Shown piece after piece: positions 31,973 to 32,665 of a stretch of DNA of 64,000 nucleotides. The stretch is from assembly GCF_053078305.1 (NCBI RefSeq), contig NZ_CP166879.1. The stretch is one strand, 5' to 3'. Within the stretch, counting starts at the first letter, position 1, and every line of letters begins with the position of its first letter. The position numbers and the translations under genes were made by a program. The notes under the pieces were generated by a model that searched no databases, had not been told where the DNA came from, and worked only from the letters and a program-made list of their open reading frames with translations.

Positions 31973-32665
31973 TCAGAATAAAGCTAACTGTTCCGGAGAC
32001 TCGCGCTCTGACTTCAGCCATGCCTCAAACAATCGCCCGAACTGAACGGCAAGCCGGATTTCATTAATCAGATTACATGTGAATATAACTGTCAGAAATA
32101 TCATGATAAAATAAACGAGGGAAAATAACATAAATAAAACTGTATTACCCCCCGACAGAAATGGCATGGTTGTAAATATCCCTCCCGTAAACTGAACACA
32201 TAAAGAAAACACCGCAAACACTGCTATCATCCGGTAACCTTTATGCACACGACGAGTATTAACAGTAAATTTGCCATCTGAAAATATACCGACAAAAGAA
32301 TATTTAAGAAAACAATGCAGTCTGTTATCCACTGAACTGACATTTCTGTCGGATATAAAACAAATCAGCTTATTACAACACCATATCGGAAGATATATCC
32401 CCATCTGTTCATAACAGTATTTTATTCTTACCAGTGTATTTTTCGTTGTTGGCTCTTTTGTCAGTTTGTCAATACGGGCAAGAATGGACTCCTTTTCAGA
32501 TACAGGAATTTTCTCAAATCTGTATTTCCTGATATTCGGCGCATAGCCATAATGCTGCACAAACCATTTGACAAGAGGAATAATAATGCCCGACAGAAGC
32601 GGTAACACCAGATTTTTAACTATATCCTGAAATGTTTTGTCCTGAAGATAATGCATGACAGACAT
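31973..32665 (-). CDS. Low-GC integral membrane protein of unknown function inserted between tssA and tssF
   Basis: 230 aa from ATG at 32665 (1 nt after the tssA stop); several TM segments; markedly AT-rich compared with flanking T6SS core genes. Confidence 0.6.
   Translation of the reverse strand: MSVMHYLQDKTFQDIVKNLVLPLLSGIIIPLVKWFVQHYGYAPNIRKYRFEKIPVSEKESILARIDKLTKEPTTKNTLVRIKYCYEQMGIYLPIWCCNKLICFISDRNVSSVDNRLHCFLKYSFVGIFSDGKFTVNTRRVHKGYRMIAVFAVFSLCVQFTGGIFTTMPFLSGGNTVLFMLFSLVYFIMIFLTVIFTCNLINEIRLAVQFGRLFEAWLKSERESPEQLALF

Follow-up and report, generated by a model that had tools for sequence, protein, structure and literature searches.

We analyzed a 64,000-nt stretch of DNA (contig NZ_CP166879.1 of NCBI RefSeq assembly GCF_053078305.1; hereafter, the window) that carries a type VI secretion system (T6SS) gene cluster of the Escherichia coli Sci-1 type, i.e., T6SS-1 of enteroaggregative E. 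coli (EAEC). The cluster lies entirely on the minus strand in the order tssB, tssC, tssK, tssL, tagL, hcp, clpV, vgrG, tle1, tli1, the PAAR gene, a gene for a 382-amino-acid (aa) membrane protein, tssM, tssA, the gene studied here, tssF, tssG, tssJ, tssE, and a TagA-like gene. The gene between tssA and tssF, which we term X, is the coding sequence of a 230-aa membrane protein (31973..32665, minus strand; taken from the open reading frame (ORF) listing and the sequence). X is non-core cargo of foreign origin that occupies a variable slot of a kind already known, and it founds a small new protein family with a marked but non-exclusive link to tssF. Over a 1.9-kb stretch around X, identity is 98.3% with EAEC 042 and 98.9% with the best-matching sequence. 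The counterpart of X in EAEC 042 (EC042_RS24255/WP_000115357.1; 96% aa identity) is annotated as a hypothetical protein. Because tssA of this strain is EC042_4540 (PMC6232143) and tssF is EC042_4542 (PMC4604203), the old locus tag of X would be EC042_4541; full-text literature searches for EC042_4541 and for the protein accession found no paper.

X is tightly packed between its neighbors. A single base (32666) separates the tssA stop codon (TGA, 32669-32667) from the X start codon (ATG, 32665-32663), and a spacer of 7 nt separates the X stop codon (31975-31973) from the tssF ATG at 31965. The upstream neighbor is a long-form tssA with a VasJ-type C-terminus (32667..34265, minus strand; TIGR03362, E 5.9e-108), and the downstream neighbor is tssF (30202..31965, minus strand; TIGR03359, E 2.3e-165). 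The Shine–Dalgarno sequence of X, GGGGAG (32674..32679, minus strand; read directly), precedes the ATG by 8 nt and falls within the 3' end of tssA, a placement that would imply translational coupling of X to tssA; judged from these junctions, X is probably coupled in translation to both tssA and tssF. Translation might alternatively begin at a GTG in the same frame (32770) or at the ATG of codon 4; the start at 32665 is supported because homologues mostly begin with MSVMHY. A scan for promoters and terminators within X returned no more sites than shuffled controls.

The earlier note on this DNA had described X as strongly AT-rich compared with the surrounding core genes although it begins 1 nt after the tssA stop, and our profiling of the cluster bore this out. 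The GC content of X is 0.377 and its GC at third codon positions (GC3) is 0.381, whereas both neighbors have a GC content of 0.54–0.56 and the seven core genes from tssE to tssM have a GC content of 0.49–0.56 and a GC3 of 0.51–0.57; that is, both measures are approximately 0.38 in X and approximately 0.55 around it. The low GC content of X resembles that of the tle1/tli1 cargo (0.41–0.43). Within the operon, X forms a sharp, gene-sized trough; across the whole window, it stands only at the 6th GC percentile because the window contains other AT-rich islands.

The product has three Kyte–Doolittle hydrophobic segments (residues 18–37, 146–166, and 175–200). The first transmembrane (TM) segment, TM1 (aa 18–37; 32555..32614, minus strand; from hydropathy and allele comparison), occurs in two exchangeable allelic types in E. 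coli. It is followed by a cytoplasmic helical domain (aa 38–145; 32231..32554, minus strand; from charge, family alignment A3, and AlphaFold2 (AF2)), which carries the family-wide residues F50, Y85-E86, G89, and F119-L120. TM2, an 8-residue periplasmic loop, and TM3 (aa 146–200; 32066..32230, minus strand; from hydropathy and allele comparison) make up the most variable part, and the C-terminal cytoplasmic helix (aa 201–230, LAVQFGRLFEAWLKSE...; 31976..32065, minus strand) hardly varies among the alleles of E. coli. The loop that joins TM1 to TM2 (108 residues) contains 20 K+R versus 9 D+E residues, and the loop between TM2 and TM3 contains none. Given this charge bias and the positive-inside rule, the large loop and the C-terminal tail are cytoplasmic; X is thus a three-pass inner-membrane protein whose bulk is cytoplasmic. 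The AF2 model computed with a 24-sequence family alignment had a predicted local distance difference test (pLDDT) score of 85.4, exceeding 90 for residues 50–220, and a predicted template-modelling score (pTM) of 0.72. It shows a long TM1 helix, a cytoplasmic domain of four short helices and a β-hairpin, and a TM hairpin of two long helices (137–171 and 175–222) with a cytoplasmic extension. A model from six E. coli alleles alone (pLDDT 51.7) was discarded.

Whether the query was the single protein, family members, or the family profile, sequence searches of Pfam, NCBIfam, PADLOC, PHROGs, and the PDB yielded nothing beyond TM-segment noise, and no match was significant. X was unmatched by the curated TssA–TssM and PAAR models of NCBIfam and Pfam, and Pfam detected neither an ImpA_N nor a VasL domain in it. 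The description of X in the earlier note as a protein with multiple TM segments and no recognized motif therefore stands.

Variation and loss of X in E. coli

The cluster is carried by 65 of 5,426 complete genomes. When the window was compared with strain STEC308, X showed 77% nucleotide identity, with 0.37 synonymous (dS) and 0.245 nonsynonymous (dN) substitutions per site, whereas tssJ, tssG, tssF, tssA, and tssM were 97–99% identical (dS 0.05–0.07, dN 0.002–0.016). The TM2–TM3 stretch of X was only 45–48% identical to the STEC308 allele at the nucleotide level, compared with 97–100% in its flanks. The synonymous divergence of X is approximately 7-fold above that of the flanks, indicating that the alleles are older than the flanks and were swapped in by recombination, not produced by mere drift; this adds to the evidence for a foreign insertion. 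Furthermore, the two TM1 types and two types of the remaining body occur in all four combinations (the window, TUM1881/RM14721, CFIA0511, and STEC308), which demonstrates intragenic recombination of X.

The regions of X differ in selective constraint. The dN/dS ratio of the cytoplasmic domain was 0.19–0.65 against diverged alleles, with 0.19 reached at a dS of 0.74 against the P0004 allele; that of the C-terminal tail was approximately 0.2, and that of the TM hairpin was 0.76–0.89. The value of 0.19 in the cytoplasmic domain indicates that X is a real coding gene under purifying selection, and its reading frame is intact, with 226–230 codons, even between alleles that share only 65% identity. 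On the grounds of dN/dS and family conservation, we rejected the possibility that X is a pseudogene or does not code for protein. As judged by these ratios, the TM helices would be loosely constrained or diversifying.

X is also frequently lost. Approximately 566 nt of the gene are missing in 24 of the 65 cluster-bearing genomes, with tssA and tssF left intact. Alignment of the window with the deletion alleles of strains O22:H8 154 and C5 placed the boundaries of the loss at an imperfect 14-nt direct repeat, whose upstream copy (TCATGAGATGTCTG; 32659..32672, minus strand) spans the tssA stop and X start and whose downstream copy (TCATGATATTTCTG; 32093..32106, minus strand) lies inside TM3. The deletion, mediated by recombination between the two copies, leaves an out-of-frame 3' remnant in which the last 39 codons, i.e., most of the C-terminal helix, survive. 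Two further genomes carry independent 1-nt frameshift deletions of X, for both of which a sequencing error is possible. X is thus deleted or frameshifted in at least 26 of the 65 E. coli clusters, and it is dispensable for keeping the cluster.

The tssA–tssF junction and the X family

To see what occupies this junction elsewhere, we collected 56 loci encoding TssA relatives (52–75% identity) from species-representative genomes; five were cut by contig ends, leaving 51 informative loci. At 33 of these, tssF directly follows tssA with a gap of 23–40 nt, and at four others the gap is 87–137 nt without a gene. The remaining 14 contain cargo other than X, and all the cargo measured is AT-rich (GC 0.36–0.47 versus 0.53–0.61 in the flanks). 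A profile hidden Markov model (HMM) search of all ORFs found no X family member at any of the 51 loci. The foreign insertion within a conserved operon that the earlier note had proposed is therefore well founded: the direct succession of tssA and tssF is the usual arrangement, other AT-rich genes enter the same place, and X is missing from most homologous clusters and has no assigned function. A role as a core structural (Tss) component of the T6SS is ruled out by this distribution (0/51 relatives) and by the deletion in 24/65 E. coli clusters.

The cargo at the junction includes recognizable effector and immunity genes. A Chimaeribacter locus (L040; locus numbers are our own) contains a gene for a PAAR toxin with an Ntox44 domain (Pfam E 2.6e-23) followed by one for a TsiR immunity protein (NCBIfam E 4e-46); three loci (L031, L036, and L027) encode PAAR toxins and small TM proteins, and another (L019) contains vgrG. 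Four loci from four genera (L005, L010, L018, and L053) encode a lipoprotein of approximately 240 aa with the lipobox LSGC and a C-terminal hydrophobic anchor, a remnant of which is found in L026; this lipoprotein has no family match and is another recurrent occupant of the slot. Further cargo consists of small polytopic membrane proteins, whose motifs appear to resemble the DUF805 and TM2 families without a significant NCBIfam match. A variable region between tssA and tssF was described earlier in T6SS-2 of Pantoea ananatis (Shyntum et al. 2014, PMC3942780). That region belongs to a related cluster type and shares with the slot of X the junction itself, AT-richness, strain specificity, and bounding by conserved core genes; PAAR toxins and immunity genes occupy the slot in relatives. 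The two differ in that the slot studied here holds a single gene without a toxin partner, and in that the X family recurs in several genera and in a second T6SS lineage.

Relatives of X outside E. coli, which the earlier note had not described any more than the mosaic alleles or the deletion in more than one-third of the E. coli clusters, were found with an exhaustive profile search of 1.84 billion representatives, which yielded 26 hits at E up to 0.001. A word-indexed protein search with X returned only E. coli proteins, and one with the family alignment recovered few members. One hit, P0012 (1868 aa, E 3e-29), was rejected as a false positive: it is a translated repeat whose approximately 31 tandem copies contain EQLGLYLPSWSC and resemble EQMGIYLPIWCC by chance. 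Repeat proteins of this kind inflate HMMER whole-sequence scores. True members are mostly 200–273 aa long, with a few fragments, and share one common architecture in which F50, Y85-E86, G89, and F119-L120 are nearly invariant (alignment A3). With Foldseek hits in the AlphaFold database included, the named sources are Salmonella, Klebsiella, Citrobacter, Kluyvera, Cedecea, Enterobacter, Raoultella, Serratia, Rahnella, Hafnia, Tatumella, and Photorhabdus. All members are labelled hypothetical, and all that we traced are from Enterobacterales.

We traced the genomic context of 10 different members in approximately 11 contexts. Seven of the 10 lie immediately upstream of tssF (L061, L069, L073–L077, L084, and L085). 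X stands between tssA and tssF in S. Concord (L061), Cedecea neteri (L069/70), and Enterobacter sp. PTB (L076/77), and behind degraded tssA copies in L063 and L084. In L084 (GCA_902849365.1), the tssA that precedes the X homologue is broken into ORFs of 162 and 186 aa and a second, full-length tssA (536 aa) follows tssE; in L063, the homologue is preceded by no more than a tssA remnant of 103 aa. The tssA copy adjoining the slot seems prone to decay. In three Rahnella-type clusters (L073, L074/75, and L085/86; Rahnella aquatilis and metagenome contigs), X lies between tssM and tssF, in the order VasX_N effector, 330–378-aa protein, PAAR, 386-aa protein, tssM, X homologue, tssF, tssG, tssJ. Within the 13–19 kb seen of these clusters, there is no tssA between tssM and tssF and no tssE after tssJ; the adjacency of X and tssA is seen in the E. 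coli-type lineage and in none of the Rahnella-type clusters. The TssF proteins of the two T6SS lineages carrying X are only 53% identical, and the Rahnella-type X proteins are mutually diverged (27–77% identity).

The remaining copies stand alone, away from any T6SS gene, in Raoultella (L064–66), in Serratia (L072), and in an island (L067) common to Salmonella, Klebsiella, and Citrobacter. In this island, X (P0008) lies beside an Mrr_cat nuclease gene and a Dpd DNA-modification cluster, and the P0008 cluster is >90% identical across Salmonella, Klebsiella, Citrobacter, and Kluyvera. The stand-alone copies behave like mobile accessory genes; plasmid- or phage-borne copies were looked for and none was found. 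In all contexts that we examined, members of the family have a higher AT content than their flanks, and they have diverged much faster than the core genes: between L061 and L069, X is 38% identical compared with 94% for TssF and 83% for TssA, and between L073 and L085, X is 28% identical compared with 84% for TssF.

Candidate functions of X

Our leading guess, to which we assign a probability of approximately 0.4, is that X is an immunity-like protective factor. We ranked this reading first because the slot elsewhere holds true effector/immunity modules, because old alleles, mosaicism, variable TM helices, presence/absence polymorphism, and mobile stand-alone copies form the pattern of a conflict gene, and because the recognizable effectors of X-carrying clusters target membranes. 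Seven contexts extend into the effector region; five of these encode such an effector (Tle1, a different lipase, or VasX_N), and in the remaining two, STEC005 and S. Concord (L061), an uncharacterized effector is encoded beside FGE-family genes. X is a horizontally exchanged, non-core cargo gene in a recombination-prone variable slot 5' of tssF in Sci-1-type clusters, co-transcribed with tssA and tssF. Its product has a 17-aa periplasmic N-terminus, TM1, a cytoplasmic helical domain of approximately 108 aa, the TM2–TM3 hairpin, and an amphipathic cytoplasmic C-terminal helix, and we infer that, embedded in the membrane, it may act as a protective factor against membrane-targeting toxins. The variable TM helices would set specificity, as in the immunity proteins of pore-forming colicins, and the conserved cytoplasmic domain would provide a common anchoring or oligomerization function.

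Inner-membrane immunity proteins of pore-forming toxins include those of the colicin E1, A, and Ia type and, in the T6SS, TsiV2, which counters VasX. The colicin-type proteins have 3–4 TM segments, and X is likewise small, AT-rich, located in the inner membrane, and variable in its TM helices. Unlike them, X has no sequence or fold match, contains an additional conserved cytoplasmic domain, and is never adjacent to a toxin gene.

Several observations weigh against a protective role. None of the 10 traced members has a toxin gene beside it in any of the approximately 11 contexts; the neighbors are tssA or tssM together with tssF, or unrelated genes, whereas an immunity family would be expected to show at least some cognate pairs. 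In addition, the X allele does not track the cluster effector in our small sample of 13 strains. The VgrG-linked effector module varies between otherwise 97–99% identical E. coli clusters (window 39097-43992 versus L078, L082, and L091) and consists of tle1 with one or two tli1 copies (one in the window, two in EAEC 042), one of two lipases (636 or 673 aa) together with a protein of 253 or 274 aa, respectively, or a large hypothetical protein accompanied by two FGE-family genes. The A-type X allele is found with tle1/tli1 in six strains and, in STEC005, with a different effector that has an FGE-family gene on either side; the C-type allele accompanies the 636-aa lipase, and the X deletion is found with tle1 and with another lipase. 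The C-type allele at first seemed linked to a lipase, but this link did not survive the inclusion of STEC005 and the deletion strains; X is independent of the effector type of its cluster. Most of X, including its best-conserved part, is cytoplasmic, and Tle and VasX toxins act elsewhere. The position kept upstream of tssF in two lineages, in one of them at the usual place of tssA, looks more like that of an accessory gene. As dN/dS never exceeds 1, relaxed constraint on the TM helices explains their variability as well as diversifying selection does. Finally, Pfam and NCBIfam searches, including the named immunity models, revealed no homology between X and any known immunity family; the detection of TsiR at the Chimaeribacter junction indicates that the search for such models works.

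A second reading, which we rank close behind the first though as less likely than not, is that X is a lineage-restricted T6SS accessory protein, i.e., an adaptor in the inner membrane that uses its cytoplasmic domain to contact the baseplate (TssF/G), TssA, or those parts of TssM/TssL that lie in the cytoplasm. X would then tune the place or the efficiency of assembly, following the logic of the TssA partners TagA, TagB, and TagJ. TagB and TagJ stabilize the sheath at the baseplate, and TagA does so at the distal end. X resembles these proteins in being non-core, lineage-specific, and not essential, and it differs from them in having no ImpA_N or VasL domain and in being far more variable and patchy; moreover, the window already encodes a TagA-like protein. 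The accessory reading fits the tight operon coupling of X, which extends to other clusters in which its start and stop overlap tssM and tssF, and the position directly upstream of tssF in seven of the 10 traced members, including three diverged ones in Rahnella-type clusters without tssA in the locus. This position persists between T6SS lineages that share no more than 53% TssF identity, no member lies beside a toxin gene, and the conserved parts of X are the cytoplasmic domain and the C-terminal helix. The absence of X from all 51 informative relatives by HMM search and its deletion or frameshift in at least 26 of the 65 E. coli clusters speak against such a role, as do its persistent AT-richness, the exchange of its alleles independently of core genes that are 97–99% identical, and the members far from T6SS genes in Raoultella, Serratia, and the Salmonella/Klebsiella islands; there is also no visible co-variation with TssA or TssF in E. 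coli. Fast evolution by itself is no bar to an accessory role, since the 382-aa protein of the cluster is conserved in position yet evolves fast. A precedent exists in small, non-homologous partners of short-form TssA, which bind TssA, stabilize the sheath, and are non-essential (PMC7896307). X differs from TssA partners in that it also occurs in loci where no tssA was found, namely the Rahnella-type clusters and the non-T6SS sites.

A bolder form of the accessory reading, which we regard as doubtful, takes the whole X family to be an unrecognized T6SS accessory tied to the baseplate gene tssF. Since X occupies the place of tssA in the Rahnella-type clusters, where neither tssA nor tssE was seen in the 13–19 kb examined, it might partly take over the task of linking the membrane complex with the baseplate. 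In that case, the hypervariability of its alleles could determine assembly specificity or self/non-self behavior and not toxin immunity.

We consider it distinctly improbable, more so than either form of the accessory reading, that X is a SLATT-like effector of a conflict or defence system, i.e., a two-TM protein that permeabilizes the inner membrane of its producer when triggered; the T6SS island would then carry X as a further gene of the defence type. SLATT proteins have a TM hairpin with flanking helices, and the helical domain and TM hairpin of X fit this architecture. A Foldseek search against AFDB50 found, among distant family members, a single "SMODS and SLOG-associating 2TM effector domain" protein (J2LL14; E 6e-5, template-modelling scores 0.60/0.55, 238 aligned columns), and P0018 weakly matched the PADLOC "2TM effector" model of the cyclic oligonucleotide-based antiphage signaling system (E 0.007). 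The stand-alone member P0008 adjoins the Mrr_cat nuclease gene and the Dpd island, and AT-richness is common among toxic membrane proteins. However, a Pfam scan of 24 aligned members and an NCBIfam scan at E up to 10 yielded no match to a SLATT model, no SMODS, SLOG, TIR, or other sensor gene lies beside any member, no phage or plasmid copies were found, and a suicide effector would hardly be expected to be translated constitutively along with tssA and tssF.

Least probable of all is that X is a hitch-hiking gene without T6SS-relevant function, tolerated in a permissive slot and decaying in E. coli: its frequent inactivation (deletion in 24/65 and two frameshift alleles), the high dN/dS of the TM hairpin (0.76–0.89), and the patchy distribution among related clusters would suit it, but it is contradicted by purifying selection on the cytoplasmic domain (dN/dS 0.19 at dS 0.74), by the frame of 226–230 codons kept across alleles only 65% identical, by a cross-genus family with invariant residues and a confident common fold, and by the recurrence of the tssF-adjacent position in diverged clusters.

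Other genes of the cluster and significance of X

The cluster contains further genes of note. The TagA-like ORF (26401-27765, minus strand) lies 412 nt downstream of tssE, is intact, encodes 454 aa, and has a TssA/ImpA_N-type N-terminal match. The RefSeq annotation of E. coli divides this 1365-nt ORF into three pseudogene pieces (ImpA_N, hypothetical or POTRA, and VasL); because the ORF has no internal stops in strain 04-00955 or EAEC 042, the pseudogene annotation looks like an artefact. The 382-aa protein (37647-38795, minus strand) has N-terminal TM segments, its gene overlaps the start of tssM, and Pfam and NCBIfam give no family for it. A counterpart is found between PAAR and tssM in every related cluster viewed (L061, L069, L073, L074, L084, and L085), with 37% identity where TssF is 81% identical and 53% where TssF is 84% identical. 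It is a second uncharacterized membrane protein within the operon.

The interval between clpV and vgrG (44071-44975, minus strand) contains a 226-aa ORF and an 83-aa ORF with two TM segments, neither of which has a family match; at the same place, EAEC 042 has genes for a hypothetical protein of 188 aa and for a "putative T6SS immunity periplasmic lipoprotein". This interval is another variable cargo site. Beyond tssE and the TagA-like gene lies a defence-gene hotspot (window 20261-25727, minus strand; L001, L079, and L080). The window contains there an 893-aa protein resembling superfamily 1 helicases, which weakly matches the ProA and Hhe models of anti-phage systems, together with an IS66 transposase. 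In other strains, GIY-YIG nuclease and 3'-5' exonuclease genes are inserted between tssE and the TagA-like gene, and a type II Zorya system or an ATP-dependent nuclease lies just past the latter.

The slot and the presence of AT-rich cargo in T6SS operons are already known, and X has been annotated but is unstudied; the X family, its linkage to tssF, its mosaic alleles, and its recurrent loss are new. Our result also marks the 5' side of tssF in Sci-1-type clusters as a general site of cargo, a useful pointer when mining for effectors and immunity proteins. EAEC Sci-1 is the main E. coli model of T6SS assembly, yet X lies within its operon without a name, a family, or a paper. As a swappable, often-lost cassette with natural loss alleles and at least two allele types, X is a well-defined experimental target. 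If X is ordinary orphan cargo, little changes; if it does modulate assembly, it would add a component to a system thought to be fully inventoried.

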